From the sequence record MH560358: a stretch of DNA of 64,000 nucleotides, one strand, 5' to 3'. The notes beneath the pieces were generated by a model. That model was not told where the DNA came from. It ran no database searches and worked only from the letters and a program-made list of their open reading frames with translations. Positions 7,335 through 64,000 of this stretch are shown here, piece after piece (position 1 is the first letter of the stretch; each line of letters opens with the position of its first letter). This DNA is from Escherichia virus KFS-EC. Position numbers and translations under genes: made by a program.

Positions 7335-7655
7335 TCAACTACCACCGTAAATTTCTACGATCTGTGCTGGAGTCAGCCCGTCTACATTAATCAGACTATC
7401 AAGCCCAAAACTACGGAAACCTTCAACTGCAATTTCATATACTGGCAAAGATGTTTCTGATTCTTTACGCGGTTTTTCAACATTAGGAACTAACCACTTT
7501 TCGTATGTTTCGAAAGGCATCAGTGCCGGATCTCGCGTGGCGATCATCTCGCGGACAGTACCATCTTTCTTAGTAAACTGCAAAGAGTGAGTACCGACCG
7601 AAAACATTTTCTTTAGTGCTTCACGAAGTGCGATATTATCAATTTGTTCGGTCAT
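7335..7655 (-). CDS. hypothetical protein (106 aa)
   Basis: ORF-track frame; start moved to internal ATG (track start is TTG). Confidence 0.4.
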   Translation of the reverse strand: MTEQIDNIALREALKKMFSVGTHSLQFTKKDGTVREMIATRDPALMPFETYEKWLVPNVEKPRKESETSLPVYEIAVEGFRSFGLDSLINVDGLTPAQIVEIYGGS

Positions 7656-8154
7656 TATCAATACCCTTCAAATCAGTCAATAATGCTTTTGGAATACGCG
7701 TGATCGTAATATCTGCATTATTCAGAATATCAGCCCAATCACGCCCACCATTTCGATCATATGTGTCGCAATAGTATAGATGTTTAATTCCACTGTTTGC
7801 AATTGCTTTAGCGCAATCTGGACACGGTGAAGCAGTACACCACATACTAGCGCCTTCAATCGATACACCGCTACGGGCAGCAAACAAAATAGCATTTAAT
7901 TCAGCGTGGATCTCGTTTTTCTGTGACCATGCACTATGCTCTGGTCGTTTTTCTGGGATCATTTTGCCGTCATCATCCAGCCAACCGCTTTTATGTGCAT
8001 GACAGCTACAATTTATTTGCCCTGCTGGAGTTCCGTTAAATCCAGTAGAAATGATTCGCCCGTCTTTTTCGATCAGTGCGCCTACCTTCCACGAAACACA
8101 TTTAGAGTTCTTTGCGATCAGATAGGCGATCTGCATGTAAGTTTGTGACAACAT
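7639..8154 (-). CDS. cd: dCMP deaminase
   Basis: Zinc-binding motifs HAELNAI and PCPDCAK. Confidence 0.85.
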   Translation of the reverse strand: MLSQTYMQIAYLIAKNSKCVSWKVGALIEKDGRIISTGFNGTPAGQINCSCHAHKSGWLDDDGKMIPEKRPEHSAWSQKNEIHAELNAILFAARSGVSIEGASMWCTASPCPDCAKAIANSGIKHLYYCDTYDRNGGRDWADILNNADITITRIPKALLTDLKGIDNDRTN

Positions 8155-10073: not shown

Positions 10074-11243
10074 TTACCAATCAATCTTATCAGCCGGAAT
10101 CAGTTTCTTATAATTCCGTAGATAGTAAGTTTTCATTGAATCCAGAATACGGTCATAATCAAGACCATCAAATGCAATCATCAGACACATGAAAATATAT
10201 GCTTGTGCATCACCATGTTTACGTGATTCGATAGTCGCATTTGATGCATATGTCTTTCTGTCTTCTCCCGCGTGTGCGTTATAAAATTCTGTTGCTGTCG
10301 TGAAGGCATTGCGAAGAATAGACCTGAATGCTTCCTCGAATAGCTCGATTCTTTCCAGTGCTTCCGGTTCGCCTTCATATGCAGCACGCAAATCATCGGT
10401 TTCGCTTTCTACGACATAGTAGATCAGGTTATTAGGAAACATCGATGTGTTTTTAATGTTATGCACACCAATATACCATTCACTCTTCACTTTGAACAGT
10501 TGACCGTCTTTAGTGCGTGCAACAATTCCTTCGATACCTTCTGCGGTCCGAACTTCGTCAAGAATATTGCTAAAACGCGCTGAATCAACCTGTAACGCAT
10601 TTACCAGATGAGGACGTAGGATTGCGTCAGCAAATAGCATTTGATGCGGTACGTACTCTCCTGTGACGTTATGACGTACATTCAGAAGTGTTAGCGACGG
10701 TTCAGAATATTCTACAACAATTCGGTTGCTGGGCGCTGTATATTCAAAGTTGAAAGTATAATCAGACCCAATATCAGCAATCTTAGCGCGTAGATCCGCA
10801 TACTTCTCTGAATACAGAAGACCGTTTGCTCTCTCTGCCTGGCTTGAGTACAAGGCCGCTTTAGACTTCAACTGAACATAGCCGTTATCAATGTAGGTGC
10901 TTACTAGACTACCGTCCATTTTGTCCATGACCATTTCCACATCTTCCGGCTTAAAGCGAGCGCGATCATTCTCGCCTAAATTAAAAAACTTCTCCATAGG
11001 ACGAGATGCAATGCGGACTGGTCGGTCTTTATCGTCAATTTCAAACATGATCCCGCGACACTCTAACGCATCTGGTTTATTCCACATTTCAGGTTTGCTC
11101 AAGTACAGATAGCTAAAAATGCGCATACGGGTTTGCATCGCCGTAATTTCATCTTTGTAATAGAACGTATCAGATCCGTCACATAGTGCCATCAGATTTT
11201 TGAACAATGCTAAAACTTTTTTGTTGTTTTCTTTTGTTGACAT
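10074..11243 (-). CDS. rnlA: RNA ligase 1
   Basis: Nucleotidyltransferase motif KMDGSLVSTY (KxDG); 389 aa. Confidence 0.8.
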   Translation of the reverse strand: MSTKENNKKVLALFKNLMALCDGSDTFYYKDEITAMQTRMRIFSYLYLSKPEMWNKPDALECRGIMFEIDDKDRPVRIASRPMEKFFNLGENDRARFKPEDVEMVMDKMDGSLVSTYIDNGYVQLKSKAALYSSQAERANGLLYSEKYADLRAKIADIGSDYTFNFEYTAPSNRIVVEYSEPSLTLLNVRHNVTGEYVPHQMLFADAILRPHLVNALQVDSARFSNILDEVRTAEGIEGIVARTKDGQLFKVKSEWYIGVHNIKNTSMFPNNLIYYVVESETDDLRAAYEGEPEALERIELFEEAFRSILRNAFTTATEFYNAHAGEDRKTYASNATIESRKHGDAQAYIFMCLMIAFDGLDYDRILDSMKTYYLRNYKKLIPADKIDW

Positions 11244-11640
11244 AATTTGTGTTCCATTCTGGTTTAAATTTGGTGATCAAAACAGGTTCTTCGATATCGG
11301 CAGTGCTTATAATATCCTTACCTGTTGGATTTTCTATGCACAACTCAAAGCACTGGCGGTAATAGAATGTTACTATCTTCCCTTCCTCTAGCGCCTTATG
11401 AATATTCTTACTCTTGCGAGTATCTGCCGTTGGTGTTTGTCTGTTAATGCTCGTCCGGTAATAATTGATCCGCTTTCTGAGATTGATAGTCTGACCAATG
11501 TATACCAGTTCATCATCAACCGCAATAGCATAAAGAACATTTAAACGGTTTTTCTGAGGAGGTAGAATCACATCACCATCTTTACACTCTAAACATGAAT
11601 ATTTAACGAATCCATAGTTTTCTATTAGCTCATTAATCAT
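11179..11640 (-). CDS. GIY-YIG-like small endonuclease domain protein
   Basis: VLYAIAVDDELVYIGQTINLRKRINYY matches the GIY...YIG...R pattern; 153 aa; 3' end overlaps rnlA start. Confidence 0.45.
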   Translation of the reverse strand: MINELIENYGFVKYSCLECKDGDVILPPQKNRLNVLYAIAVDDELVYIGQTINLRKRINYYRTSINRQTPTADTRKSKNIHKALEEGKIVTFYYRQCFELCIENPTGKDIISTADIEEPVLITKFKPEWNTNYVNKRKQQKSFSIVQKSDGTM

Positions 11641-17525: not shown

Positions 17526-18761
17526 TTATACTGCCATTTGAGCGGTGATTGCTGGATGGCTTTGATAGTTGTGAATTTTAAAATCTTTCGGAGTCTTTGT
17601 CAATACCTCATCTAAAGATTTAAATTCCGGCAACTCAATTGTTGGTTTATCAAACGGAACACGGCTTAACTGTTCCATAACTTGATCAAAATGGTTTTTG
17701 TAAATGTGGCAATCCCCACACTGATAAACCAGTTCGCCAACTTCTAACCCGCAAATCTTCGCGATGATATGCGTTAACAGTGCATAGCTCGCTACGTTGA
17801 ACGGATTCCCTAAAAAGAGATCATTCGAACGCATGAAAAATAAACAACTCAATTTGTTGTCGTTGGAAACATAAAACTGTACCATCGGATGACATACACC
17901 TAACACAGCATTATGCGTTTCCTGTACGTTCCATGAATCAATGATAATACGACGACTATACGGATCATTCTTGATCATGTCAATAACTTTTTGTAACTGG
18001 TCTTCCCAAATCTTCGGGCGATAGACATATTCTTCATCGTCTTTAGTGCTTGATGTGTCTACGTCCATACTAACAAACATCGTGGTATCTGGTGCTAAAA
18101 TATCCCCGCCCAGATAATCACTATCAAGCAGATAACCGAAATAACCATCATCTACCCATTCCTGGAATCCCCACAAGCAATATGCATCATTAACAAAATT
18201 AGATTGAGTCTTCCAGTGGTCTGCTACTAAGAATAGATTATATTCAGAATCAAACTCTTCATAACGCATACCACGCCAGATAGCACATAAACGGTCTTCT
18301 GTGTCATTGGTTGGCGTAAAGTCTTCTACCCACGGGTGCTTAAATGTATGTGTATATTTGCTCTTAACGCGCTTAATTTTGATTTCACCATGTGGATGAA
18401 TCGGTTTGCGTCGCCACGCCATACCATACATATTGCCGACATTATAACCATTGAATCGCAAAGGATTCTTTTCTTTCATATCAAGACAGTTACCGCGCCA
18501 AATGTCGAAGGCTTCTTCGTCAAACTGACCGCGTGTAATTTCCTGTAAGCGACGGCGGTCAAGTGATCCCTCCATAAACCATAGCAACTCGCCAATTATA
18601 GAGGCTGTAGCCATCTTTTTAGTGGTCAGTAATGGGAAACCCTTGCTTAAATCGATTCGCATCTCCGCGCCGAATTTAGAGAGCGTACCTACCCCCGTGC
18701 GGTCTTCACGAGGACAGCCATTATCAAGAACATCACGCAATAGTTTCAAATATTCTTTCAT
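17526..18761 (-). CDS. td: thymidylate synthase family enzyme with ~115-aa internal insertion
   Basis: DRTGVGT, SRRIIIDSWN, VCH, DLFLGNPFNVASY, HIYKNH motifs; 411 aa versus about 265-290 typical. Confidence 0.8.
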   Translation of the reverse strand: MKEYLKLLRDVLDNGCPREDRTGVGTLSKFGAEMRIDLSKGFPLLTTKKMATASIIGELLWFMEGSLDRRRLQEITRGQFDEEAFDIWRGNCLDMKEKNPLRFNGYNVGNMYGMAWRRKPIHPHGEIKIKRVKSKYTHTFKHPWVEDFTPTNDTEDRLCAIWRGMRYEEFDSEYNLFLVADHWKTQSNFVNDAYCLWGFQEWVDDGYFGYLLDSDYLGGDILAPDTTMFVSMDVDTSSTKDDEEYVYRPKIWEDQLQKVIDMIKNDPYSRRIIIDSWNVQETHNAVLGVCHPMVQFYVSNDNKLSCLFFMRSNDLFLGNPFNVASYALLTHIIAKICGLEVGELVYQCGDCHIYKNHFDQVMEQLSRVPFDKPTIELPEFKSLDEVLTKTPKDFKIHNYQSHPAITAQMAV

Positions 18762-19095: not shown

Positions 19096-19665
19096 TTACA
19101 CCTTCTTACGTTCTAAAATTTGTTCGCTGATCAGGTAATCATCAAGGAAGTAACTATGTTCTTCTTTTGTTGCAAAGTCAAAATATAATTCCTGAATCAT
19201 TTCCTTAGAGATCCCAACATCATATTCGAACGGATCATTAATTCCTGCTCGTTGAACATATGTTAACACAATACGATCCGAAAAGTCAACCGCTTTTTCA
19301 ATCAGGGAAGGTCCGCCGATAACACTTACCAAACCTTGCGTTTTCTCTAGGGCTTTTAACAGATCCTTCAATTCAATTCCAGTATACACATCAGGTTGGT
19401 CGCCGTTTTTAGCTTTCGGTTCTGGCTTGTTGGTATCGGTGCTAACAACCACATTCAAACGTCCCCAAAGTGCTTTAGGCAGACTTTCAAAGGTATTGCG
19501 TCCCATTACTACCGCAGAAAAATCAACCTCGCCAATAGTGCGGATTTGAAAGTTTTCCATATCTTTTTTGATTGGACGACCCCACGGTAAACCGCCTTTA
19601 AAACCAAAAGCCCAATTTTCATCCGACATTTTAGTGTTACCAATCGCAAATACACATTGAATCAT
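19096..19665 (-). CDS. frd: dihydrofolate reductase
   Basis: GGLPWGRP motif; 189 aa; directly upstream of td. Confidence 0.85.
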   Translation of the reverse strand: MIQCVFAIGNTKMSDENWAFGFKGGLPWGRPIKKDMENFQIRTIGEVDFSAVVMGRNTFESLPKALWGRLNVVVSTDTNKPEPKAKNGDQPDVYTGIELKDLLKALEKTQGLVSVIGGPSLIEKAVDFSDRIVLTYVQRAGINDPFEYDVGISKEMIQELYFDFATKEEHSYFLDDYLISEQILERKKV

Positions 19666-23368: not shown

Positions 23369-24316
23369 TTAGAACTCACCAATTTTCTGCAACATTTTAA
23401 CCAACGCATTTGTTACAAAATAGTTATAAATTTTACCGCGTGGTGCTGGTTTAGATTTTTCCCATGCTAACAAAATTTCATATTCGATGTTATCGGGAAT
23501 AAATTCGAAATCAATAAGTTCGCGGTTTTCGTCAAAGCGTCGTGCTTCTTCCTCTGTCATCAAAGACTTTGGATCTTCGGCATCGAAAATTTGCTCTAAC
23601 CATTTGGTTGCAATTGGTTTAGCCCTTTCTCCTTCCAGTCGTGAGATAATGAAATCACTACGGCACTTGATAGAAGCTACACCGTCTTTTGCGTCACCCT
23701 TAACACATTTTACCATAAGGTCTTTGTAAGGGCTACCATATTTGCATTTCTTCCACGCTTTCTGTACTGGCGCCCACTGTTTCACGTTTTTGTATTTGTG
23801 CAACTGTGTGTAGTCACCATCGCCTGAGTTGATCAGCACCTGGCGACCTTCGACAGAAAACTTTTTAGTTAATACAGCGATTATATCATCTGCTTCAACT
23901 TTGTCAACCTTAATAACGTGATAAGGCATGTTCTCTTTAAACTCTTCGGTGATCTTATTGATCGCAGCAAAGATCATCTCCCAATCACGCGGATCTGCGT
24001 CTCGTTTTTCCTTACGGTTGCGTTTATAGTAAGGGGCGATATCACGTCGCCAGTAACCTTTGCTTGAATCAAAAGCAAGTACCGTAATAGGGTATTGCTC
24101 TTTGAATTTTGTCATATTATAACGCATGGTGTCAAGGATAAGATGACGGATCATGCCTTCATTAATAGGATCTTCCGGTTTAAAGGTATGTGAGATAGTA
24201 GCAATCATAAGCTGCGACATATCAATCAAATGCACACCTTCCGGCAGTTTATCTTCTGGATCATCAAAGAAATCATTAAGTGTAGCGGTAGTTTTTGTAA
24301 ACGGGTTATACGTCAT
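23369..24316 (-). CDS. rnh: RNase H / FEN-type 5'-3' exonuclease
   Basis: 315 aa; acidic active-site clusters (GDGDYTQLHKY); T4-like position upstream of the tail-fibre genes. Confidence 0.85.
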   Translation of the reverse strand: MTYNPFTKTTATLNDFFDDPEDKLPEGVHLIDMSQLMIATISHTFKPEDPINEGMIRHLILDTMRYNMTKFKEQYPITVLAFDSSKGYWRRDIAPYYKRNRKEKRDADPRDWEMIFAAINKITEEFKENMPYHVIKVDKVEADDIIAVLTKKFSVEGRQVLINSGDGDYTQLHKYKNVKQWAPVQKAWKKCKYGSPYKDLMVKCVKGDAKDGVASIKCRSDFIISRLEGERAKPIATKWLEQIFDAEDPKSLMTEEEARRFDENRELIDFEFIPDNIEYEILLAWEKSKPAPRGKIYNYFVTNALVKMLQKIGEF

Positions 24317-24318
24317 AA

Positions 24319-24504
24319 TTAAGTTCTCTCCACTCTCACAACAACATATTCGCCAAACGAGTTAGATACTTCACGATCATACCCGTATTTCTCCATAACT
24401 CGCAGAATTGCATTGTTTAATTCGGCACGGAAATAATTGTAATCCTTATCTGGGATTCTGTCAACTATCCATTTTGCACCGTCTGACAAATCAACTTTAA
24501 CCAT
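24319..24504 (-). CDS. hypothetical small protein (61 aa)
   Basis: ORF track. Confidence 0.35.
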   Translation of the reverse strand: MVKVDLSDGAKWIVDRIPDKDYNYFRAELNNAILRVMEKYGYDREVSNSFGEYVVVRVERT

Positions 24505-24510
24505 AATATA

Positions 24511-25092
24511 TCATCCTCTTTTTGGAAAATTTAAATAAGCATACTCGCCAACTATTTCATGTGCTGCACGGTCATAAGCCTTAGCCGCCTCAACTTCTGT
24601 CTCAAAGTATCCTAGATGTATATTCTTTCGATTGATAACAATATACGCCTTCCACGGCTTTTTCTTGCTTGGTGATAATGATACACCTTTATATTTGCTA
24701 TGGCAAGCCTTTTTCTTTGAGACGTTAAACTGATTTTGCTGTTCGGTTGCTTCTCTCATGTTTGACGGTCTATTGTTAGTTTTGTCTTGGTCTATGTGAT
24801 CTATTCGTTCAACCTGAGTACCATACTCTAAAAACCAGACAACTCTATGTACAAACAGATTAAGTTTATGACCATTGTTGTAAAATGTAAAGTATAAATA
24901 TCCTTCTTTATGGAGACATACCCTTACCACATCACCTTTTTTGTATATGGACCCTTCTTTTCGGAATCCAGCAGCTACAGAATCCTTTAAATGGTATAAT
25001 ATTCCATCGACATGATAGAATCTACCTTTTATCGCTTTCTGTGTCTCGATATCCCAAAATTTTGTTTTTGCCACAACAAACACCACACACAA
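24511..25092 (-). CDS. HNH homing endonuclease with C-terminal AP2-like DNA-binding domain
   Basis: HRVVWFLEYG...IDHIDQDKTNNRPSNMREAT (HNH_3) plus YKGVSL...WKAYI...LGYFETEVEAAKAYD (AP2-like). Confidence 0.7.
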   Translation of the reverse strand: MCVVFVVAKTKFWDIETQKAIKGRFYHVDGILYHLKDSVAAGFRKEGSIYKKGDVVRVCLHKEGYLYFTFYNNGHKLNLFVHRVVWFLEYGTQVERIDHIDQDKTNNRPSNMREATEQQNQFNVSKKKACHSKYKGVSLSPSKKKPWKAYIVINRKNIHLGYFETEVEAAKAYDRAAHEIVGEYAYLNFPKRG

Positions 25093-25126
25093 TAAATAAT
25101 TTCATATTATAACAGGAGACCCAATA

Positions 25127-28100
25127 ATGGCAGATTTTTCTCAACATTTCAAGGCCACCTTTGGCTTTGACGCTGGTAATGAAAAGGTCGTCAATGTAGC
25201 ATACGCAGATAAAAACACATCAACGGATGCGGTCAACGTTGAATTTTTCAATTACCATAATGGTATTACTCAGTATGACACAACTCGCGGTTATGATCAA
25301 TACGGAACTACAATCTATCAAAACCGTCCGTATTATGCAAAAGAAGATATCACAAAGCCAGCAGGTGATTTTGACCCGACTAAATGGCAAGCACTGCGCA
25401 CGGACCCACGTTGGGATTATATTGCAGCAACTTCCGGTGATACTCCTTTAAAGTCTGGTGATTATATCGCAGCAGATGGTCAATTTGCAAACTTGACTTT
25501 CTCGATGCCAACTAAACCAGCAGAGGGAGACACTATAACAGTAAAAGATATCGGTGGCAAGTGTGGTGTTAACGAATTATCGTTCTTGAGTTCAGGACAT
25601 GAGTTTTACCATAACGGTAATGTGTATAACCGAAAATGGTATTGCACTACCCCGTATGCAATGAACTATTTCATCTTTGTTCGGAATCGTTGGCATGTTT
25701 ATCAGACGGGAACAGAGCCGCGCGGTGTGTACGCACAGCCAGCGATTGATGCTATTCAAATGCAGAATGGTGATCAGGTATTTCGTCGTAGTTCGTTGGG
25801 TAATATTACCTTAGTGCTTCCTAAGTTTGCCAACAATGGCGACATGATCCAGACTACAGACCTTGACGGATTAACCGCAACCAACCACGTTACGGTTAAA
25901 GTTCATGAGCACGCAGAAGAACAATCAATTGGCACGTCCGGTCTAAAAGAGATTATTGGTAAGCGTAGCGGTCATGGTGTATTCATCTTTGACAAGACGG
26001 AAAACTTATGGCGTTTGTGGGATGGTGATCAGTCTGTTCGTCTTAAACCGATCATCGATGACACTCGCTTGCAACCTAATAGCTATGTTGCTGTATTTGG
26101 TGGTCGTGATGTTACTCTGACGCTGCCAACCAATGTCGAGCCGGGTGATCGTATTCAAGTTTCTATGCAGTATATGCACGGAAACCAGAATTGCCGTATT
26201 ATCACCCCCACAGAGGATACAAAAATCCTTATGCCGAAAAACATGGTTCAGTTTCCGAAGCGTAGCGAGTACCCATTCAACGGGACCGACACATGGAAGG
26301 AAGTGTCTGAATTGTCGTTCAATGCGGCTAGTGATTATGTACCTTATCTGGAGTTCTCTTATTCAGAAGGTGATGATGGTAAGAAATACTGGTTGGTGGC
26401 ACACGCTCATCCGATCGTAGAACGAGTAGATCCGACTCGTAAAGCGCGTGTCGGTGTAATTGCACTGGCTACCCAGACTGAAACGAATAAAAACCATGAA
26501 GAGAATCCTAGCGACGAAGTTGCAGTAACACCAAAAATGCTGGCTAATAAAACAGCCAACGAAACTCGACGCGGTATTGCTCGCATTGCGACTCAAGCGG
26601 AAACGCATCAAGATACTGGTTCCAACTTCATGGATGATGTTATCGTTACGCCTAAAAAGTTAAATGACTGTGTTGCTACCGAAGCCCGTCGTGGTGTGAT
26701 GGAAATTGCAACCCAGCACGAAACCAATGAAGGTTTAGACGATACCCGCGCTATTACTCCTAAGAAATTAGAAGAACGTCGCGCTTCCGAAGATTTAGCT
26801 GGTATTGCTGAAATTGTTCAGGCTGGCGGTAGTGCTGCCGCTCGACGTGGCGAAGCTGGTACAGGGATCTATAACATCAACGACCATGCTAAAATTGTTA
26901 CTCCACAAAACATCAACGAAGTCAAGGCGACAGAAACTTCCCGTGGTGTTGGCTATCTGGCAACTGACGCGGAAGTGCAAGGGGCTACAGAATCAACCCC
27001 GCAAGATGCTTTACTAATCACGACTCGCACGCTAACGAAACGTACTGCTACCGAATCGCGCACTGGTATCGCTGAAATTGCAACCCAGGAAGAAACAAAC
27101 TTAGGTCAAAGTGATAACCATATCATCACGCCTAAAAAGCTGCATACTCGCCGCGCAACGGAAACTTTACATGGTTTAGCAGAAATTGCAACTCAGCCGG
27201 AATTTGATGCAGGTCTTGATGATGCTCGCATTTCTACCCCATTGAAGATTAAAACCTTCTTTGAGAATGCACAGCGTTTGAAAGTAGATCCGACTCAGGG
27301 GCTTAACCTTACTGGTGATTTGTGGCAAGGTATCATGATCAGCGGTCTGGATGCAACCGAAGACACAAAAGGTGTCGCTAAAGTTGCTACTACTCAGCTT
27401 ACGGATGCTGGTCAAGATGATACTACAATCATCACGCCTAAAAAGCTGCAAGGCAAAAAAGCCACCGAAGGTAAAGAAGGTATTATCCGCGTTGGTACTC
27501 AAGACGAAACCGTCGCTGGTACTATGGACAATGTAGCAATTTCGCCTAAAAACTTCAAATATGTTGTTCAGACAGAAGAAACATGGCAAGCAACGGAAGC
27601 CCGTCGCGGATTCCTGAAAGTAGCAACACAAGAAAACTGTTTTGTTGGTGATAATCTGCAAGGTTCTACTCAAGAGCTTGATGAATATCAGCATGATGGG
27701 ATTGCGGTAACTCCGAAAGGATTAAACTACGCACTTGCTAATTTCTTACCTAAAATGGCAACCGCTCAGAATAGTTTGAAATTGGGTAACGTAGAGGCCG
27801 CTAAATGGGCGCGTAGAGACATTGACCAGACCATTGAGAGCAATTACACGTTTAATAAAAACGTTAACTTGAAGGGCGATTTAGAGTGCTTAAAATCCGG
27901 TTCCTTTGAAACTCTGTTTGTGACTAAGAACTCGACTGACGATCCGAGTAATGGTCATCTGGTATTGGGTGAGCGTGGAGTTGACGGTCACACCGGAATT
28001 ACTCTGCATGGCACAACCTTGTCAGAAGGTATGGAAAACTCATGGTCTATTATCGTTGGTGGTACTGGAACGGCGCAAGCAGTTAATAGTGATGCTATCG

Positions 28101-31803: not shown

Positions 31804-34566
31804 ATGGCAGATTTAAACAGAATCCAGTTTAAACGCACTAGCGCAGCCGGACGTAAACCGGATGCTGGTACGATGAATCCGGGAGAGTTGGCAATTAACT
31901 TAGCAGACCAATATCTGCTTACAAAAAATGATGGTGGGCAAATTGTTAATTTAAGCTGCCCTCCAGTTTATGACAAGAGCGTTAATGTAAAAGGTCGTGT
32001 GGTTGCAGATGACCTTATGTGGAGTAATACCGCAAACTATTTCGATGACCCGACCGCACGAAATCTTGATAAATTTGGGGCATTTCGTACTAATGATATG
32101 GATGGTCATCTAGCACTTGCTTTGCATATTCCCCATCCTAGCGGTATAAATCATGCTCGTGGGTTTGATTTTACTTATGGTTCTAACGTTGTTCCTACTG
32201 TAAAAACCTATGGTTATAACGCTGATGGTGTATTGGCATATTCATATCGCATGTATCACGAAGGTGATAAGCCTAGTCCGTCAGAATTAAATGTATACAG
32301 CAAACAAGAAGTAGACCGGATGTTCCAGAAGACCATCAACTTTGGTGTAGAAACTGGATGGTTTAAAATTGCTACCGCCTTTATTCCGCAAAATGATGGA
32401 CGTAGCTTGAAAATTAGATTGATTGGTGGAAGTGGGTGGAACGTAGGACAAACTGGACAATGTAATATTATTGAACTTGTTATAAGGACTAGCAACGGTT
32501 CGCCTAAAGGAATTAACTTTGTTGCGTATCATCATGTTTCTGGTTACGAAAATCAATTTTGTGCCATTAATACAGGTGATGACACTTATGATATCTATGC
32601 ATATTACTTCGAATTTACTAATATGGTAATGGCTGAATATCAAGCGTCCAGCGGTGTTAATTTAACTGTACTTGATCGACCTGAATATGTCGGCGAAAAA
32701 CCTGTAGCTGATCATATCTATGATGCATATACAATATACTCCTTTAACAGTTTCAGTAACCGTGGAACGTTAAATTTTGCTGGAAACCCTCAAGGCCAAT
32801 ATGACATTGAGCATTTGAACGTGCAACAAACTAACAGCAAAAAGATGTTGCGTCGCTTCCGTAGTTCTGGTCCTGCCACTATCTGGCATGAGACAGTTGA
32901 TGATAACCAGTATCGTCTTGCTACTGGATACGAAGATACAAATCAGGAATTATTGCTGACAGCAACATCCGGGTTACATGTCAAGAAATTAACATTGGAT
33001 GGCGGTGTCACTGGAAATTCTGGTATTGATATTCGTCGAGGACCAAACGAATCAAGCCATTTTAATTTCATGGATTATCGCACTGGACAAGATGTTCGTA
33101 ATGGTTGGTTTGGTTTTGGTGATGGAACAACCAAAGATTTTATTTGGTGGAACGATAACGGTCAAAACTCTATAAACCTGATTGAAGACGGTGAATTACA
33201 TATTACTGGCGGTAGAGGCCAGAAAATTGTAATGAATAGCGAAGTTGCATTATCTGAAAATGCTCGTTTGGCTGTTAAAGGTGGCAATTATGGCTTAATT
33301 TTTAGAAATGATGGCGTTGGCTTCCATATTCTTACCACAGATCTCGGTGATTCATTTGGACCGTGGAATACTCGTAGACCATTCAGCTATGATTTTGCGG
33401 ACGGTGGATTGTATTTAGGTGGTACTGCAACCGCTCGTTGTTTGCATCTGGGAATTGATGGTAGCACTCGTCTCGAAGACAACCTTTTCTTTAAAGCTGG
33501 TTCTCGTCAATCTATGGACTATATGGAACTAGTCCATTGGGGGGCAAGCAATACAGGTCGAAATAACGTTTTAAGTCTTCGTGACTCAAAAGGATTTTTC
33601 GCAGAATTTGAACGATTGGGTGATGATACCATTAAAAACACCTTCTTCGGGAAACTTAAAGTTAATCGTGGTTCTGACGCAATCGTCATGAATGCCGAAA
33701 CGGGTGATTCGTCTATATATTTGCTGGGTACTTGTGCTGATAATAACAACTGGTATATCGGTAAAGGTGGTGCTGATAATGGATTAGCGTTCTATAGCTA
33801 TGCTACTAATGCTGCTATCAATATTACAAACGCTGGTGATATCGCGCTAAGTCCAAAAGGTGTCGAAATGACTCATGTCAATAACGTTCGATTCTATGTT
33901 CATGGTGAACGTTGGACTGCTAGCCAATCTGGAGGCTGGGGCGATCAATGGGGATTAGAAGCGCCGATATTTGTCGATCATGGTTATGTTGGACCAGATA
34001 GCTATTATCCAATTATTAAAGGAAGAAGTTTAATCACCAATCAAGGGTATACAACTGCCGTCGATTTTGGTCTTCGTCGTGTTCCTCAAAATTGGGGGCA
34101 AGCTATTATTCGTGTTGGATCTGCGGATGCATCGCCAGCGGCTGGTCATCCTCAAGCTGTATTCGAGTTCCATCATGATGGTACTTTCTATTCTCCTGGT
34201 AATGGTAACTTTAACGATGTTTATATTCGTTCCGATGGTCGTCTGAAAATTAATGTTGAAGATTACGAAGAAAATGCGGTGGATAAGGTAAATAAACTCA
34301 AAGTTAAAACCTACGATAAAGTTAAATCTCTTAATGACCGAGAAGTTATAGGTCATGAGATTGGTATTATCGCACAGGATTTACAAGAGGTATTACCGGA
34401 AGCTGTTAAAACCGCAAAAATTGGTGGTCTTGATAACCCAGAAGAAATTTTAACAATTTCAAACTCCGCAGTGAACGCGCTTTTAATTAAAGCGGTCCAA
34501 GAAATGAGCGAAGAAAATAAACTTCTTCGTGAACGTCTTGCTGCAATTGAAGCTAAATTAGGGTAA
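31804..34566 (+). CDS. 37: long tail fibre distal subunit with C-terminal chaperone-like domain
   Basis: MADLNRIQFKRTSAAGRKPDAG...GELAINL N-terminus; 920 aa; C-terminal SDGRLKINVE...GIIAQDLQEVLPEAV...coiled-coil tail. Confidence 0.85.
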   Translation: MADLNRIQFKRTSAAGRKPDAGTMNPGELAINLADQYLLTKNDGGQIVNLSCPPVYDKSVNVKGRVVADDLMWSNTANYFDDPTARNLDKFGAFRTNDMDGHLALALHIPHPSGINHARGFDFTYGSNVVPTVKTYGYNADGVLAYSYRMYHEGDKPSPSELNVYSKQEVDRMFQKTINFGVETGWFKIATAFIPQNDGRSLKIRLIGGSGWNVGQTGQCNIIELVIRTSNGSPKGINFVAYHHVSGYENQFCAINTGDDTYDIYAYYFEFTNMVMAEYQASSGVNLTVLDRPEYVGEKPVADHIYDAYTIYSFNSFSNRGTLNFAGNPQGQYDIEHLNVQQTNSKKMLRRFRSSGPATIWHETVDDNQYRLATGYEDTNQELLLTATSGLHVKKLTLDGGVTGNSGIDIRRGPNESSHFNFMDYRTGQDVRNGWFGFGDGTTKDFIWWNDNGQNSINLIEDGELHITGGRGQKIVMNSEVALSENARLAVKGGNYGLIFRNDGVGFHILTTDLGDSFGPWNTRRPFSYDFADGGLYLGGTATARCLHLGIDGSTRLEDNLFFKAGSRQSMDYMELVHWGASNTGRNNVLSLRDSKGFFAEFERLGDDTIKNTFFGKLKVNRGSDAIVMNAETGDSSIYLLGTCADNNNWYIGKGGADNGLAFYSYATNAAINITNAGDIALSPKGVEMTHVNNVRFYVHGERWTASQSGGWGDQWGLEAPIFVDHGYVGPDSYYPIIKGRSLITNQGYTTAVDFGLRRVPQNWGQAIIRVGSADASPAAGHPQAVFEFHHDGTFYSPGNGNFNDVYIRSDGRLKINVEDYEENAVDKVNKLKVKTYDKVKSLNDREVIGHEIGIIAQDLQEVLPEAVKTAKIGGLDNPEEILTISNSAVNALLIKAVQEMSEENKLLRERLAAIEAKLG

Positions 34567-34604
34567 TTGGAAAGCGGGGAGAAATCTCCGCTAAGGATTC
34601 TTAT

Positions 34605-34928
34605 ATGGGATATTGGGTAAGTAGTGAAATTAATACTAAAATCGATGCTTTAAAATGGCATGTATTTGATATTCCTAACGGCTATGGTACTGCTCGTGCT
34701 GGTGTCGCTGTAATGCGTCATAATGCTGGTGGTGGGTGGTCTGATGCACATATTAACGTAGATGGTTTGACCGTTGCTCGTCGTCGTGGTGGGACCAATT
34801 GGGGATCTACTATAAATTCGTTTGTTCCTGCTGGCTGCACCGTCTCCTTTGGTTTAGGGGGTGAAGGTGGTGACTCAGAATTGCTTTTGCATGGCTTTTG
34901 TGTGTCTGGAAGTCATAAGGGGTCATGA
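34605..34928 (+). CDS. hypothetical glycine-rich protein downstream of gene 37
   Basis: 107 aa; GGGW, GGEGGD glycine-rich stretches; SD AAGGA upstream. Confidence 0.4.
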   Translation: MGYWVSSEINTKIDALKWHVFDIPNGYGTARAGVAVMRHNAGGGWSDAHINVDGLTVARRRGGTNWGSTINSFVPAGCTVSFGLGGEGGDSELLLHGFCVSGSHKGS

Positions 34929-35087
34929 TTGGGGACAGATCCATTCTTGTATTGTGCCGCAGGGAGTAACGATCACGGTAACTACAAACAGGGGTATTTC
35001 CCATCTTCGTTATAGACGCTTGAGCAACCGTTAAAAAAAGAATTAAGGAAAACTCCCAGGGAAGGGAACTACTAAGGAGAAACGGCT

Positions 35088-53864: not shown

Positions 53865-54383
53865 TTAGTAGCCGCGTTCTTGACGGGCGAAGTTTTCAGC
53901 ATTTTTCAGATAGTACAGCTTGAAGATATCCTTAGCGGTTAAACCTAAGCCCAGCATTTTAATCAGCACAAAATGCCAGATATCGATCAATTCCATCGAA
54001 ATTTCGGTTTTATCGTCATCTGACAGGTCAGCAAATTTACGCGATCGTGCTTCGCCGTGGTTTTTCTTCCACACTTTAGTAATTGCGCTTGCATCTTTGC
54101 CATTTGACATGCCACCCAGGGCAACATAAAGTTCTCGTGTCTCGTCGTCGATTGCGTCATCCCACAACTTCATCCAGTCAAGGATTTCTCCACAAGTTTC
54201 CAGCTTATCAGGATGCGGCACCCACTCAAATTTATCAGCTAGTGCGACCTGTAATCCTTTTTGCATATCTAACATTACTTGCAGCGGATCTTTGCCGCTA
54301 GTGATTGCCTCGGAATACGCAATACCAGCTTTAGACATAGTTTCATCATTAACAAGACCAGCACAAGAATTAAATTCACTCAT
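53865..54383 (-). CDS. 56: NTP pyrophosphatase, gp56 (dCTPase/dUTPase)-like
   Basis: 172 aa; position adjacent to gene 61; conserved C-terminal LYYLKNAENFARQERGY; start at internal ATG. Confidence 0.6.
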   Translation of the reverse strand: MSEFNSCAGLVNDETMSKAGIAYSEAITSGKDPLQVMLDMQKGLQVALADKFEWVPHPDKLETCGEILDWMKLWDDAIDDETRELYVALGGMSNGKDASAITKVWKKNHGEARSRKFADLSDDDKTEISMELIDIWHFVLIKMLGLGLTAKDIFKLYYLKNAENFARQERGY

Positions 54384-54393
54384 AATAAACCTC

Positions 54394-54957
54394 TCAAATA
54401 ACATTAAACACTGCAAATTCACCGTGATACTTATACGCATAGTCATTATATACTATTGCGGCGTCTATTTCTAGGTCAAATTGTCCTATATAGACTTTAT
54501 TTCCTTCATTGTCCCTTATCTGGGCGACCCATTTACCCGAACGACTATTATAATGCACTCCTTTAAAATTGCTAGTTTTAGTTTGGTTATTTCTTCTCAT
54601 ATTTTGGGTATTCTGTTTTTGTGTCGCCTCTCTTAAGTTTGGAGGGTCGTTGTTTTCTGGATTCCCGTCAATATGGTCAATGACAGGTGGGCAATACCCA
54701 TGCTCTAAGAAGAATACTATTCTATGCACAAGCTCAAAATATTGTTTTCCTTCAAAAGAAAACGAGACTTTTAGGTGTCCGGCTGTGACTTTAGATACCT
54801 TTACTATATCACCAACCTTATAAAACTGGCCTTCTTTCGTCGTTCGGCTTGCTTTGCTGTTTGTTTTATGAATCAATATACCACTTTCGTGTCTATATCT
54901 TCGACGTATTTCATCCTTTAGTTCATCGCTCCATTCTTTGGCTTTCCTTACCCTCAC
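54394..54957 (-). CDS. HNH homing endonuclease with C-terminal AP2-like domain
   Basis: HRIVFFLEHG...IDHIDGNPENNDPPNLREAT plus FKGVHY...WVAQI...IGQFDLEIDAAIVYN; paralog of 24511-25092. Confidence 0.7.
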   Translation of the reverse strand: MRVRKAKEWSDELKDEIRRRYRHESGILIHKTNSKASRTTKEGQFYKVGDIVKVSKVTAGHLKVSFSFEGKQYFELVHRIVFFLEHGYCPPVIDHIDGNPENNDPPNLREATQKQNTQNMRRNNQTKTSNFKGVHYNSRSGKWVAQIRDNEGNKVYIGQFDLEIDAAIVYNDYAYKYHGEFAVFNVI

Positions 54958-59398: not shown

Positions 59399-60148
59399 TT
59401 ATTCTATGTCAACAAATTTCCAATTTGGAAAGTCTGGACTCATACAACGACGCCGAACGGTTCCGCGCTCGTTTCCTAGTACCTTAGATACTTCCGATAC
59501 AGATTTATAAATCACACCATCAACAAATACAGCCTTTCGGTCTTTCCTGTTTTGGTTTTTGCTCTTTTCTCTTCTGGCTTCTACGTTATCCGAATCATTC
59601 CATTGTCTCTTTGCTGTCTCTCTGGAAGATATTGCCTTTTGTTCTTTAACAATATCTTTAACGAGTTGTTCTTGTCCTGTTATCTTCGCCCACACATTAA
59701 CAGACTGGATAGCATTAGCCTCACTCATTCCCCAGCGTTTGCCGGATATATTCTTACGACGCACGCGTAGAAATTCGTTAAAGACTTCTTCGCATTGGTG
59801 CATATAATCACGAAATCCATATTTCTTAGCCCATGCCTCTTTAATTGCATCAGACATATTTTCGGCAATACGTCTACGCATCCATGCATACTCCTTATTA
59901 TTGCGACCGTGACTGGTCATGCACATCATACGCGAAGCCATAATAAGACCCACATGTTTAGGATACATTTTAGCTAAAAGTAGATGTGCTGTAAAGTGTT
60001 CCTCTGGAGTCAATGGAACGAGATTTTCGTGGTCATCGGTTCCACCCATACAACGTGGTTTAACGTGATGGATCTCTACATATCCGGTCGGCTTCTCGCG
60101 GGTTCTTGCTCGTTCAATCAATTTTTCGTAATGTGCTTTGTAGTTCAT
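59399..60148 (-). CDS. HNH homing endonuclease
   Basis: EIHHVKPRCMGGTDDHENLVPLTPEEH motif; start at internal ATG with SD GGAGGA. Confidence 0.7.
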   Translation of the reverse strand: MNYKAHYEKLIERARTREKPTGYVEIHHVKPRCMGGTDDHENLVPLTPEEHFTAHLLLAKMYPKHVGLIMASRMMCMTSHGRNNKEYAWMRRRIAENMSDAIKEAWAKKYGFRDYMHQCEEVFNEFLRVRRKNISGKRWGMSEANAIQSVNVWAKITGQEQLVKDIVKEQKAISSRETAKRQWNDSDNVEARREKSKNQNRKDRKAVFVDGVIYKSVSEVSKVLGNERGTVRRRCMSPDFPNWKFVDIE

Positions 60149-60161
60149 GTGATCCTCCATA

Positions 60162-60185
60162 TGAAAAAGGGGCATAACGCCCCTT
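60162..60185 (-). terminator. rho-independent terminator (AAGGGGCGTTATGCCCCTT plus TTTTCAT) after uvsX
   Basis: Between uvsX stop and the HNH gene start on minus strand. Confidence 0.5.
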
Positions 60186-60199: not shown

Positions 60200-61270
60200 T
60201 TATGCTAACATATCTTCGATTTCTTTGTCAACTGCTTCGTCGCTGATAATCTGGCCTAACTGATAATGATCGTTGATTGCTTTCTGGAAGTGCTCATTGG
60301 TCAGTAGAGGTTTCCAGAACTCCACACTGTCAGTGTCTTTTGCACGCACCTTGCGGTCTTCAACTTCCATTTCTCCGGTCTCCTCGTTAAGAATAGCGCG
60401 AGAATACCAGCCATTTGATGGTTTAACTACCCAACCCAACTCCACCGCAAGATCCAGCAATCCAGAATAAGGATCGATGCCACCACTAAACGTTACGCTA
60501 ATCGGGAACTTTGATCCCTCTCTAACCGTTCGTGATTTCTCGGCTTTCAGAATAAAGTCATAACCCGTAACCTCGGTTCCTTCTTTCTGCTGGCGACGCC
60601 CAATGATGAAAATTTCATTGGAAGAGTAAACGCCACCAGTACCGCCACCCATGATATCTTTCGGGTAAAGATCCATTGAGCTATAAACGTGGTTAATCGC
60701 AATGCACGGAATATCATTCATGGTCAGATACGGCGTAATCATACGGAACAAGCCTTTAAGTGCTTTAGCTCTCGTCATATCCTGCGCCGATTTCTCATTA
60801 ATCGCGTCTTCAACTTCTTTTTTACTTGCCAAGTTACCGATTGAGTCAATAAAGATGATCACTTTATCTTCACGGGTAATTTGCTCAAGCTGGTTCATGA
60901 TCTCAAATTTAAGTTCTTCGATGTTCTTGATTGGAACGTGCACCACTCGATCAGGATCTACACCCATAGATGACAGATACGCGGAAGTAATGCCAAATTC
61001 TGAATCAAAGAACAAACAAGCCGCATCTGGATTCTGTTTCATGTATGCACTAACACAAGTTAATCCCATGTTTGATTTAAAGTGCTTAGACGGACCAGCA
61101 AAGAAAATCAGACCAGATTGAAAGCCTTTTTTAAGATCACCAGAAAACGCAATATTCAGCATCGGGTTCTTAGTGCGAGTATTTGTTTTTTCGTTAAAGA
61201 AGCTGGATTTAGACAGTACCGCAGTAGTTTTCAGGGTAGAGTTCTTTTTCAGTTTTTCCAGTACAGACAT
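60200..61270 (-). CDS. uvsX: RecA-like recombinase
   Basis: Walker A AGPSKHFKS; 356 aa. Confidence 0.95.
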   Translation of the reverse strand: MSVLEKLKKNSTLKTTAVLSKSSFFNEKTNTRTKNPMLNIAFSGDLKKGFQSGLIFFAGPSKHFKSNMGLTCVSAYMKQNPDAACLFFDSEFGITSAYLSSMGVDPDRVVHVPIKNIEELKFEIMNQLEQITREDKVIIFIDSIGNLASKKEVEDAINEKSAQDMTRAKALKGLFRMITPYLTMNDIPCIAINHVYSSMDLYPKDIMGGGTGGVYSSNEIFIIGRRQQKEGTEVTGYDFILKAEKSRTVREGSKFPISVTFSGGIDPYSGLLDLAVELGWVVKPSNGWYSRAILNEETGEMEVEDRKVRAKDTDSVEFWKPLLTNEHFQKAINDHYQLGQIISDEAVDKEIEDMLA

Positions 61271-61281
61271 TATTAATACCT

Positions 61282-61470
61282 CTATTCAGTTAATCCGTAA
61301 TACTTTAATTGCTTCATTGTTATTCGATCTTTGTAGTGCTCTTGAATTAACTTTTTCATCACATCAACATCGATCGTCACAAATACTTCGTTGCTGTGAT
61401 TTCCGTGAACTTTCTTGAAATGCTCTATGCCTTCCTCACGTTCACGTTTAATCTTTTCAATGTCTCTCAT
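61282..61470 (-). CDS. hypothetical small protein (62 aa)
   Basis: ORF-track frame; start at internal ATG; only gene between 43 and uvsX. Confidence 0.35.
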   Translation of the reverse strand: MRDIEKIKREREEGIEHFKKVHGNHSNEVFVTIDVDVMKKLIQEHYKDRITMKQLKYYGLTE

Positions 61471-61531
61471 AATATATTTCTCACATTGGCGGGTATCGTA
61501 ACCCAACACCCGCCATTATACACACTTTATC

Positions 61532-64000
61532 TTAAATGTCAAACAGGTCCGTAAGCGATGCCACCTTTTCATATTGCAGCTTTGCAGCCGTGGTAATGTT
61601 CTCCAGTGGTTTGACGAAAGTCTTATTAAACAACAAAGGCCAGTCCAACCACTTCAACACCTCTGATTCAATTTCTGGAGGAATACGAGTACCAGACAAC
61701 CAACCAAAACAGATTTCTCCAAACGGATTTCGATCTTTAAGCGGTACAATCATAACCTTCTCGCCTTCACGAATCGGATCTAGTCCGAATTTTCGAGCAT
61801 TACGATTATAACACAATACACTCTTAACCGCATACGGACAACCCTTAATCGGATACCCGTTTGAATCGCTGTATTTCTGTAGGTTGTTTGCAGATGATAC
61901 CGCAGCAACATCAAGATAGTCAAGTTTTCTAAATTCTTGCTCAAAAATACCGTAGTATTCCTGCAATGACTCTTCACCTTCCTGCAACATACGGCGAATA
62001 CATTCTTTCAGTGATTTCTGACATGCTTTAGGGGTGGAGCTACGTTGCGTTTCCAAGCCCATGATTTTTAGCTTAGGTTCAGCAAAGCGCGTTCCTTCCA
62101 TATCCCAAACATTAAGAGCATAACGCTTTTTGCCAGTCCAGAATCCACCGATACCCGCAGATTTCAACGGAGGACCAGCAATTGCCTCACGGTCCATAAA
62201 CATCAAGTGCTCATAGTTATTCATGTACTCGCATAACTCGCGATATCCCTTGTCGATAATAGGTTCCATCCGATGTTTACCGAAATTATCAAGGAAGTCA
62301 ACAAGTTTTTCGGTATCGTCGAAACGATCTTCCCCGCCAACCTTATCAACAACATTGTTAACCAGCACATAAACGGAGTCAGTATCACAATAACGAACAT
62401 ATGCAAAATCGGTTGTTCCGCAAAGCTCGTTTAAGTATTCGTTAATCTTACGCTCAATCCACTGAATTGCAAGCTGACCAAACAAGGTGATCGCACTAGC
62501 GTTACGGAGATCATAAAAACGGAATTTAGGATTCCCCAACGCACCATAAAGGGAGTTGATCAAAACTTTTCGAGAAAGCTGGTTTGTATTGCACAAGATC
62601 GACTCGTCTTTACATTCTTCCAGCAATTTCTCTAAGGCATCTTTACTTAATTCAGAAAGCATCGATTTAAACGCTTCATCAAAGTCGTGACGCACTTCAA
62701 CGCTATAGCTAATGGTTCCCCCATAAACATGATTTTCATCGTGTAGAATCGCTTTACAGAGTTCAGCATTGCGATCACATGCCAGCATCATATTTTTGTA
62801 CTGCTTGCGCTGGTCGAATACCTTTTTAATCTCAATCGGTACGATACCATGAATATCTTTTCGATACATCCACCCGTTAGGCGAGCAAGAATACTCATCG
62901 CTCGGACGCGGGGCAGTTTTATTGATATACTCGTGCATCGGTGCAGCATCAAAAGATCCAGCGATTGTTTCCGGCGAAATGTTAACCTGACGGATGATTG
63001 ATGGATACAGACTTGTTAAGTCAAAGCTCATCATCCAGCGATAAGCATTAGGTACAGGTTCTTTTACAAAAGCACCTGGATAAGTCTGCTTAGGCTGTAT
63101 CTTGTTCTCCGGTACTACTTTACCCTCAGCTTTCAGAGATCCGAAAATAATAGCATCCCATACTTTCATCGGGTTATAAACATGGTTAAATTTAATCTTT
63201 GCATAGAAACATAGGCTATACACCAGATCGATAAATCCGCGCTTTTTATCAATCGCCAGCACACGATCAACGTCGCCGATGTTATAATCGATGTAAAGTT
63301 GATGGTTGTCATCACGCAATTTCTTTAACGGACCGTCATAATCAACCTTACCGATTCCTGTCTCATATTCAGCAACATAATCTAATGCATATGTTGGTTG
63401 AGTCGTAAAGCTAAATTTCTTGTACAGGTCAATATAATCAAGGCTTTCGATCCCCATGATCGTAAATGCTTCACGCTCGTTGCCAAAATCATCCTGTGAG
63501 ATTCGGGATTTAATCTTACCGCACGGGCTTAGACGGGTAGCGGTTCTACTTCCGAACTTATTACTGATACGCTTAATGATATATGGAATATCGAATGTTT
63601 CTGTGTTCCAGCCAGTGAAACCAACTGGTCGGTTTTCCTCAAAGAATCGGATGTATTCTAACAGCAATTCATCTTCTGTATCATAGACATTATAAACAAC
63701 GCGCTCTACAATATCTGGACGAAGAATGGATTTGCTTGCTTCCCAAGATTCACCGTTTTTTCCTTTCAAGTCAAATACAAAGAAACGATCATGTACGGAA
63801 TCATAATGCGTAATTGCATCGATAGGATATTTCGCTTCTTCTGGTTTAGGAAATTCCGGTGCAGTGACCTCAATATCAACCCAGGATACACGGATTTTAT
63901 TTCGGTCATATCGAATCTCACCTTTATATGTATCGGACAGATAGGAGATGATAAAATCATCCATCCCTAGTGCCTCCTGCCCCATTTCTCCCATCTTTTT
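61532..64000 (-). CDS. 43: family B DNA polymerase (partial; N-terminus beyond window end)
   Basis: Exo motif VDIEVT, pol motifs SFDLTSLYPSII, KVLINSLYG, VRYCDTDSVYV; frame remains open to position 64000. Confidence 0.95.
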   Translation of the reverse strand, partial: KKMGEMGQEALGMDDFIISYLSDTYKGEIRYDRNKIRVSWVDIEVTAPEFPKPEEAKYPIDAITHYDSVHDRFFVFDLKGKNGESWEASKSILRPDIVERVVYNVYDTEDELLLEYIRFFEENRPVGFTGWNTETFDIPYIIKRISNKFGSRTATRLSPCGKIKSRISQDDFGNEREAFTIMGIESLDYIDLYKKFSFTTQPTYALDYVAEYETGIGKVDYDGPLKKLRDDNHQLYIDYNIGDVDRVLAIDKKRGFIDLVYSLCFYAKIKFNHVYNPMKVWDAIIFGSLKAEGKVVPENKIQPKQTYPGAFVKEPVPNAYRWMMSFDLTSLYPSIIRQVNISPETIAGSFDAAPMHEYINKTAPRPSDEYSCSPNGWMYRKDIHGIVPIEIKKVFDQRKQYKNMMLACDRNAELCKAILHDENHVYGGTISYSVEVRHDFDEAFKSMLSELSKDALEKLLEECKDESILCNTNQLSRKVLINSLYGALGNPKFRFYDLRNASAITLFGQLAIQWIERKINEYLNELCGTTDFAYVRYCDTDSVYVLVNNVVDKVGGEDRFDDTEKLVDFLDNFGKHRMEPIIDKGYRELCEYMNNYEHLMFMDREAIAGPPLKSAGIGGFWTGKKRYALNVWDMEGTRFAEPKLKIMGLETQRSSTPKACQKSLKECIRRMLQEGEESLQEYYGIFEQEFRKLDYLDVAAVSSANNLQKYSDSNGYPIKGCPYAVKSVLCYNRNARKFGLDPIREGEKVMIVPLKDRNPFGEICFGWLSGTRIPPEIESEVLKWLDWPLLFNKTFVKPLENITTAAKLQYEKVASLTDLFDI

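Follow-up and report, generated by a model that had tools for sequence, protein, structure and literature searches.

The interval between genes 43 and uvsX of T4 (23562-27196, about 3.6 kb) holds segA, beta-gt, 42, imm and imm.1. Gene 42, together with alc and denB, is confined to the T-even, JS98, RB69, CC31, Acinetobacter and 44RR-type phages (Petrov et al. 2010; PMC2993671, Table 4), and glucosyltransferases are confined to the T-evens and CC31 (PMC2993671). Gene 56 has a much wider distribution, being found in all T4 relatives apart from four giant phages that have a host-like dUTPase; its dUTPase function is described as essential, and cd, td, frd, 56 and denA are counted among the genes of auxiliary metabolism that are widespread (PMC2993671). 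RB49- and RB43-type phages keep homologues of DenA and of the dCTPase-dUTPase, are without every known enzyme for a non-canonical base, and transduce canonical DNA (PMC8056088; PMC12115623). The genus Krischvirus, to which RB49 belongs, has been scored as positive for 56 and denA and negative for hmC, denB and alc (PMC12115623, Table 4). On the DNA itself, RB49 has served as an unmodified control, a phage without hydroxymethylase and beta-gt whose DNA is cut by HpaII and NheI (Yaung et al. 2014; PMC4041780), and TB34, also a Krischvirus, had only canonical nucleosides by HPLC-MS (PMC13390438). Unmodified DNA is what allows RB49-type phages to be used as such controls, and it leaves them sensitive to ordinary restriction and CRISPR and able to transduce plasmids.

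The sequence examined here, which we call the window, is a stretch of 64,000 nt and belongs to an RB49-like, T4-related coliphage of the 'pseudo-T-even' group (Krischvirus, Straboviridae). Its last 7 kb are 98.8% identical to vB_ESM-pEJ01 (OP114734) and 95.9% identical to RB49 (NC_005066), with identities of about 96% also to Phi1, JSE, ECD7, SAP, TB34 and around 50 further records, every one a Krischvirus. Collinearity with RB49, pEJ01 and SAP extends over the full window at 92-99%, bar a few indels and insertions. It resembles RB49 and the genus at large in gene order, in its set of nucleotide genes (cd, 56, td, frd, denA and nrd), and in the missing 42, gt, alc and denB.

A preliminary description made from the window had pointed to a short gap between genes 43 and uvsX with a single 62-aa ORF, at the place where T4 has imm, 42 and beta-gt. 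The gap is as described, measuring 261 bp (61271-61531) with one plausible ORF; the T4 gene list is correct as far as it goes but leaves out segA and imm.1. On one side lies uvsX, encoding the RecA-like recombinase (60200-61270, minus strand, 356 aa, start ATG at 61270), which is annotated in the relatives and is 59% identical by tblastn to T4 UvsX over 350 aa. On the other side lie the 3' 2.47 kb of gene 43, the DNA polymerase (61532..64000, minus strand), 56% identical by tblastn to residues 71-897 of T4 gp43 and ending in a TAA stop at 61534-61532. Gene 43 is cut by the end of the window and its 5' end lies beyond; the homologous CDS has 2679 nt in pEJ01 and RB49, and the 820-aa version in the mechanical ORF list begins at an internal ATG. 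The flanks are thus orthologous to those of T4, and the genus shares with T4 homologues of 56, cd, denA, td, frd and dam, whereas the interval is 261 bp against about 3.6 kb and the genus is without imm.1, imm, 42, beta-gt and segA in this slot. Chance is no issue for genes that are missing from a syntenic slot. A stretch of 801 nt comprising uvsX, the ORF and gene 43 occurs in one unbroken piece in 57 phage records at an identity of at least 95%. The short gap is real but ordinary, typical of the whole genus Krischvirus, and as a feature it is already explained in the literature on RB49-type phages and is nothing new.

In the 5' to 3' direction of the coding strand, the interval contains a promoter, a GC-rich hairpin, the 62-aa ORF and an 11-nt spacer with a GAGG ribosome-binding site ahead of uvsX. 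The promoter is a perfect sigma-70 early promoter, TTGACA-16 nt-TATAAT (61515..61542, minus strand, 12/12 consensus matches), with its -35 box overlapping the final codons of gene 43. The window has 8 perfect TTGACA-N15-18-TATAAT matches where 0.14 are expected, and every one of the 8 is on the minus strand; the RB49 annotation has a 'hypothetical early promoter' at the equivalent spot. Directly after the -10 box comes the hairpin, GGCGGGT...ACCCGCC (61488..61514, minus strand); the RNA fold of 61478-61524 has an energy of -23.7 kcal/mol with z = -4.6, and none of 200 shuffles folds as well. Such a combination has been described in RB49 and phi1 under the name PeSL (promoter-early stem-loop), a near-perfect TTGACA-N17-TATAAT accompanied by a stem with a G-rich and a C-rich arm (Arbiol et al. 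2010; PMC4122927). The cassette in the window is built in the same way, a near-consensus sigma-70 promoter (N16 here) and then a hairpin of a G-run and a C-run, with a small accessory ORF adjoining. It differs from the RB49 and phi1 cassettes in sitting between two core genes and not in a hyperplastic region, and no shuffling is seen at its site among 57 genomes.

The 62-aa ORF (61282..61470, minus strand, ATG at 61470, stop at 61282) is the sole gene in the gap and the equivalent of RB49p025, the counterpart junction in RB49 being RB49p024-026 with the same layout. A 75-aa version with a GTG start, which appears in the ORF list, would begin inside the hairpin. The product matches phrog_12120, a family of unknown function, over its full length (E = 3e-41) and has no Pfam match. 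It is 97-100% identical in RB49, pEJ01 and SAP and is found at an identity of at least 95% in 57 phage records, with distant partial homologues at 45-50% identity in about 13 unrelated siphophages with genomes of 45-50 kb. We considered whether the ORF might be a remnant of imm, 42, beta-gt or segA, and this was ruled out by its having no similarity to T4 at 12-45 kb, which includes the T4 43-uvsX interval, or at 125-169 kb. The ORF would probably be co-transcribed toward uvsX from the promoter-hairpin cassette, and any role it has is inferred from this setting. Where T4 has imm.1-imm-42-beta-gt-segA, then, the genus has no more than the cassette and the small conserved ORF.

What we consider very probable, then, is that the RB49-like lineage is without the T-even replacement of cytosine, that it uses ordinary dCTP and has cytosine DNA, and that its gp56 homologue is a dUTP-sanitising enzyme, the specificity of the latter being deduced from its sequence. 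The phage would replicate with ordinary dCTP and package cytosine DNA, and nrdAB, cd, 56, td, frd, tk and gene 1 would form a pathway for thymidylate supply and dUTP sanitation, not for cytosine exclusion. Of the two alternatives offered in the preliminary description, modification genes lying elsewhere in the genome or the use of unmodified cytosine, it is the second that finds support, from the close relatives, from the cutting of RB49 DNA (PMC4041780) and from the canonical nucleosides of TB34 (PMC13390438).

For the first alternative, the window, the complete genomes of RB49 and pEJ01, and likewise SAP were searched by tblastn with T4 proteins; all 5,410 ORFs of at least 40 aa from the same four sequences were also searched, at maximum sensitivity, with phmmer and a TS-superfamily profile. 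T4 orthologues were found for gp43 (56%), UvsX (59%), gp56 (51%), Cd (55%), DenA (50%), Frd (35%) and Dam, where the dam matches are only in RB49, pEJ01 and SAP and the homologues of gp56, Cd, DenA, Td and Frd are in the window. By tblastn and phmmer, alpha-gt, beta-gt, imm, alc, denB, arn and ndd have no match in the window, RB49, pEJ01 or SAP, and imm.1 has no tblastn match in the window or in complete RB49 and pEJ01. For glucosyltransferases, nothing better than E of about 1 was obtained by tblastn or phmmer in the four genomes, a search that very divergent ones could escape. The T4 gp42 query finds by tblastn only the paralogous td, and weakly (E = 5e-4 to 0.015). There is exactly one member of the TS superfamily in each of the window, RB49, pEJ01 and SAP, and in each it is td; a hidden hydroxymethylase is ruled out among all ORFs of at least 40 aa in these four sequences. 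Pfam scans of 17 larger ORFs of unassigned or doubtful function, 10 from the window and 7 from RB49, gave no glycosyltransferase or base-modifying domain. The RB49 annotation names none of the genes of the hmC system. The marks of the T-even hmC system, an Asp179-type gp42, alpha- and beta-gt, and alc, denB and arn, are accordingly absent from what was searched. One further candidate for a modifying enzyme was RB49p189, annotated in RB49 and TB34 as 'DNA methyltransferase / C-5 cytosine methylase', which lies outside the window and has no Pfam support at E of 0.01 or better.

The visible part of the source genome is 64 kb, and absence from the remaining 100 kb or so is deduced from the relatives. 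Could gene 42 and glucosyltransferases lie in that remainder? In favor of this are the mosaic make-up of T4-related genomes and the inserted endonuclease genes and divergent alleles that distinguish this window from its relatives. Against this, the genes are present in 0 of 3 complete Krischvirus genomes. Furthermore, among 72 IMG/VR loci carrying gene 56 that we surveyed with 10-kb flanks, all 40 with a TS-like gene in view have it in the 43-uvsX slot, the slot that is empty here. Finally, alc and denB, the companions of gene 42 (PMC2993671), are missing from pseT-rnlA and rIIB-52, the syntenic positions at which the window would have them. We regard a location outside the window as extremely unlikely. 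The suggestion that the modification genes lie elsewhere is contradicted by complete RB49, pEJ01 and SAP, where td is the only candidate, and the genome search proposed for gene 42 and glucosyltransferases yields none in the window or in the three complete Krischvirus genomes.

The TS-superfamily member of the window, td (17526..18761, minus strand), matches Pfam Thymidylat_synt with E = 4e-84. In an alignment with E. coli ThyA and T4 gp42, it has the catalytic Cys and the motif LGNPFNVASY, with the dUMP-type Asn where T4 gp42 has Asp179. Adjoining it is frd, encoding dihydrofolate reductase (19096..19665, minus strand), 35% identical to T4 Frd (E = 3e-21). Dihydrofolate reductase recycles the dihydrofolate made by a true thymidylate synthase, and a hydroxymethylase makes none. 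The Asn177-type motif and the frd neighbor fit a td product that is a true thymidylate synthase (ThyA), and by the same two features we ruled out td as a disguised hydroxymethylase. The restriction data on RB49 DNA (PMC4041780) give no hint of a dUMP hydroxymethylase activity of td.

The dCMP deaminase gene cd is at 7639..8154 on the minus strand, and its product is 55% identical to T4 Cd, matching Pfam PF00383 (dCMP_cyt_deam_1) with E = 6e-23 and PDB ID: 1VQ2, T4 Cd itself, with E = 1e-58, which makes it a T4 Cd-type enzyme of the zinc-dependent CDA fold. It was correctly noticed beforehand that cd and a 56-like gene are present, as the homologies to T4 Cd (55%) and gp56 (51%) confirm. The accompanying premise, that cd serves cytosine exclusion, was overstated, since many organisms whose DNA is canonical use dCMP deaminase to supply dTMP synthesis. 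Homologues are known from a cyanophage, from bacteria and from humans, and the T4 annotation gives both dCTP and hm-dCTP as activators of T4 Cd. In the pathway that we favor, cd would convert dCMP to dUMP, the gp56 homologue would convert dUTP and dUDP to dUMP with little or no action on dCTP, and td with frd would carry dUMP to dTMP.

The window also has denA, encoding a homologue of endonuclease II (11179..11640, minus strand), 50% identical to T4 DenA (E = 8e-42) and with a weak GIY-YIG Pfam match. It is kept although its T4 counterpart cuts cytosine DNA, an observation that counts against the main explanation.

The gene 56 homologue (53865..54383, minus strand) encodes 172 aa that are 51% identical to T4 gp56 over the full length, and we identify it as an all-alpha pyrophosphatase of the dimeric dUTPase/dCTPase family. 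The match to PF08761 (dUTPase_2), confined to the C-terminal 27 residues, reaches 26.0 bits where the cutoff is 22.9, and phrog_173, an NTP pyrophosphohydrolase family, is also matched. The acidic metal ligands and the motif-IV His-Phe couple that mark the family are conserved, D80, E81, E84, E127, E131, D134, H137 and F138 being invariant in the alignment of gp56 orthologues, and residue 141 is the one difference from T4 gp56 in the catalytic motifs. Gene 56, which roughly 1,400 phage genomes carry, is kept by nearly all T4 relatives, with or without gene 42. The Krischvirus genomes have no trimeric dUTPase and no second gp56 paralogue, and gp56 is the only dUTPase candidate in them. No solved structure was found for it by sequence, a profile giving only a marginal match to PDB ID: 1W2Y, the C. 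jejuni dUTPase; a single-sequence AlphaFold model with a mean pLDDT of 42 was kept out of the fold search.

The efficient dCTPase of T4 empties the dCTP pool and blocks the synthesis of cytosine DNA (PMC6071114). Because of that block, a T4-like dCTPase would be self-defeating in an RB49-type phage, and we therefore looked for a correlate in the gp56 sequence. Nine orthologues were aligned, six from lineages containing gene 42 and three from phages with cytosine DNA. Only one column is invariant in the six gene-42 lineages and changed in all three cytosine-DNA sequences. It is an Asn (HFxL-N), three residues after the motif-IV His-Phe, at residue 141. The residue is Asn in the T4 type, Ile in the allele of the window, Ser in RB49 and pEJ01, and Cys in the Pseudotevenvirus Lw1. 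In the IMG/VR survey, the 40 loci having a TS-like gene in the 43-uvsX slot, always of the dCMP type with Asp179, have Asn in gp56 in 40 of 40 cases. Where the slot lies inside the locus and is empty (14 loci), the residue is Ser or Cys in 11, which are Krischvirus and Pseudotevenvirus, and Asn in 3. The 3 that keep Asn are VR20-like Gaprivervirus, a group without gene 42 that retains alc and denB (PMC12115623). The covariation comes from two independent clades plus two Krischvirus alleles; chance alone would give about 0.2 such columns.

As to what residue 141 might do, the uracil-specific C. jejuni dUTPase has the motif EIVDIWHFILS, which the gp56 profile matches with E = 0.04 and which has Ser at the position of the Asn, as RB49 does. 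Both T4 gp56 and 1W2Y belong with the window protein to the dUTPase_2 family, the motifs E..VD..HF and the C-terminal K N..N..RQ..GY being alignable, whereas the overall similarity to 1W2Y is marginal at that E value and the window allele has Ile where 1W2Y has Ser. In the dimeric dUTPases the deoxyribose is clamped by the His-Phe couple, of which the His is the proposed uracil determinant (PMC5608427). Residue 141 shares the helix of the couple, four positions on from the His (i+4) and three from the Phe (i+3). Its replacement is a lead to a possible loss of dCTPase activity in the cytosine-DNA phages, and the residue a candidate determinant. It is plausible on these sequence comparisons that the gp56 homologue of the window acts as a dUTPase, as the preliminary description had proposed.

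An alternative reading of the same enzyme is that it is still a dual dCTPase-dUTPase, which together with cd would drain deoxycytidine nucleotides by way of dUMP to dTMP for a genome of about 60% A+T, with enough dCTP surviving through lower activity, timing or channelling. The 51% identity to T4 gp56 is in keeping with this, as is the conservation of the acidic ligands, the His-Phe couple and the C-terminal motif; annotations do name the gene 56 product a dCTP pyrophosphatase, and cd is in the same pathway. However, in T4 that activity abolishes the synthesis of cytosine DNA (PMC6071114), the cytosine-DNA genera have three different substitutes for the one residue that tracks gene 42 through the 72 loci, and at site 141 the RB49 allele carries the residue of a uracil-specific dUTPase. 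We judge retained dCTPase activity to be unlikely. The practical value is for annotation, in that gene 56 in an RB49-type genome is not to be taken as a sign of cytosine exclusion.

One recent report is at odds with the picture of cytosine DNA throughout Krischvirus. The DNA of SAP, a member of the genus, was found to contain 5-hmdC and alpha-glucosyl- and alpha-gentiobiosyl-methyl-dC with no identifiable pathway, and SAP was sensitive to BrxU (2026; PMC13390438). Read at face value, this would mean that at least some Krischvirus isolates swap cytosine for bases of the hmC or glucosyl type without a TS-like hydroxymethylase or known glucosyltransferases, and 56, cd and denA would then be part of a genuine cytosine-exclusion system. 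The question touches the window, which shares with SAP both its gene 56 allele (98% identical, against 69% to that of RB49) and the HNH endonuclease gene adjacent to it. By implication TB34 shares this allele, as SAP is 99.96% identical to TB34, whose DNA is canonical (PMC13390438). The modification profile of SAP groups with those of seven Tequatrovirus phages of the same collection (PMC13390438), and SAP has no TS-like gene besides td and no glucosyltransferase homologue. The cutting of RB49 DNA by HpaII and NheI (PMC4041780) also speaks against a cryptic pathway in the genus. We hold such a pathway to be very improbable, and infer that a mixed lysate or a sample swap is a simpler and likelier source of the SAP modification.

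A genetic cause for the difference between SAP and TB34 was sought in their first 50 kb. There are 8 substitutions, all of them C/G in SAP against T/A in TB34, together with eleven single-base indels and one intergenic indel of 83 bp, and several essential genes are split in the TB34 record. Apart from the 83-bp intergenic indel, these differences look like sequencing noise, and they were rejected as the cause.

Apart from the question of cytosine, several inserted homing-endonuclease genes and divergent alleles set the window apart from every relative. The extra HNH gene already mentioned, which RB49 does not have, lies between 56 and 61, and further HNH genes additional to those of RB49 are found near cd, before gene 34, and between gene 40 and uvsX. 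The window also differs from RB49 in having a different distal tail fiber gene, and in the divergence of some of its alleles.

The codon for gp56 residue 141 lies at about 53961-53963 in gene 56 of the window (53865-54383, minus strand), which encodes a homolog of the T4-type dCTPase-dUTPase, and it marks the site where, in many relatives, an Asn follows the His-Phe of motif IV. All 40 of the 40 loci with an Asp179-type thymidylate synthase (TS)-like gene, that is, one of the gene-42 hydroxymethylase type, in the interval between genes 43 and uvsX have the Asn in their gp56. In Krischvirus and Pseudotevenvirus the position is Ser, Ile or Cys, not Asn, and the matching position in the Campylobacter jejuni dUTPase 1W2Y is likewise Ser. 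This pattern in the alignments makes the site a candidate for setting the enzyme's specificity between dCTP and dUTP. The VR20-like loci of Gaprivervirus (L035, L055 and L070) have imm in the 43-uvsX interval, with the TS-like gene missing, and their gp56 retains the Asn typical of cytosine-excluding phages. Published work suspects that Gaprivervirus makes a non-canonical base by some route yet to be found (PMC8056088), and an Asn that is kept where the TS-like gene is missing fits with that suspicion.

Adjacent to gene 56, between it and gene 61, there is a free-standing endonuclease gene with HNH_3 and AP2 domains (54394-54957, minus strand), which is found at this junction in the complete Krischvirus genome SAP and not in RB49 or pEJ01, the other 2 complete Krischvirus genomes compared. 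The window gp56 has a protein identity of 98% to that of SAP and only 69% to that of RB49, and nucleotide identity to RB49 around the endonuclease gene is 91.7% on the 56 side versus 98.6% on the 61 side. Judged by these identities, the endonuclease gene together with the divergent 56 allele (53865-54957) looks like a case of homing-endonuclease co-conversion. The arrangement is reminiscent of T4, where SegF adjoins gene 56. Four further free-standing HNH-type endonuclease reading frames are each limited to some Krischvirus genomes: an HNH endonuclease at 3696-4169, a NUMOD4 plus HNH_3 endonuclease adjoining cd at 6721-7338, an HNH_3 plus AP2 endonuclease before gene 34 at 24511-25092, and, between gene 40 and uvsX at 59399-60175, an HNH endonuclease whose DNA-binding domain is of the I-TevI type.

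The window's thymidylate synthase allele (td, 17526-18761) differs from those in RB49, pEJ01 and SAP. Relative to Escherichia coli ThyA, the protein has an insertion of about 125 aa, roughly from residue 120 to 250, which brings it to 411 aa and in which no Pfam domain was detected. The insertion is in the small-domain region, where certain other TS enzymes are enlarged as well. Against the same 3 genomes, no segment of the window diverges more than the distal long-tail-fiber gene (32325-35034), with about 74% identity or no alignment.

The DNA of SAP has been reported as modified and that of the Krischvirus TB34 as canonical. Over the first 50 kb compared, the two differ by 8 substitutions, all of them C/G in SAP versus T/A in TB34, and otherwise by indels of one base and one intergenic indel of 83 bp (SAP 39705). 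The TB34 record has uvsW, gp29, and inh each split, which suggests assembly errors. The gene annotated "DNA methyltransferase" in RB49 (RB49p189; 15890-16606 of the RB49 stretch L004, outside the window), which the TB34 record labels "hypothetical C-5 cytosine DNA methylase", matches no Pfam family at a cutoff of E = 0.01.

Perfect matches to the promoter pattern TTGACA-N15-18-TATAAT number 8 in the window, against 0.14 expected by chance, and all are on the minus strand (1762, 20426, 21521, 23880, 44609, 46567, 47551, and 61515). The spacer of the one at 1762-1790 contains the palindrome GGGGATC...GATCCCC.
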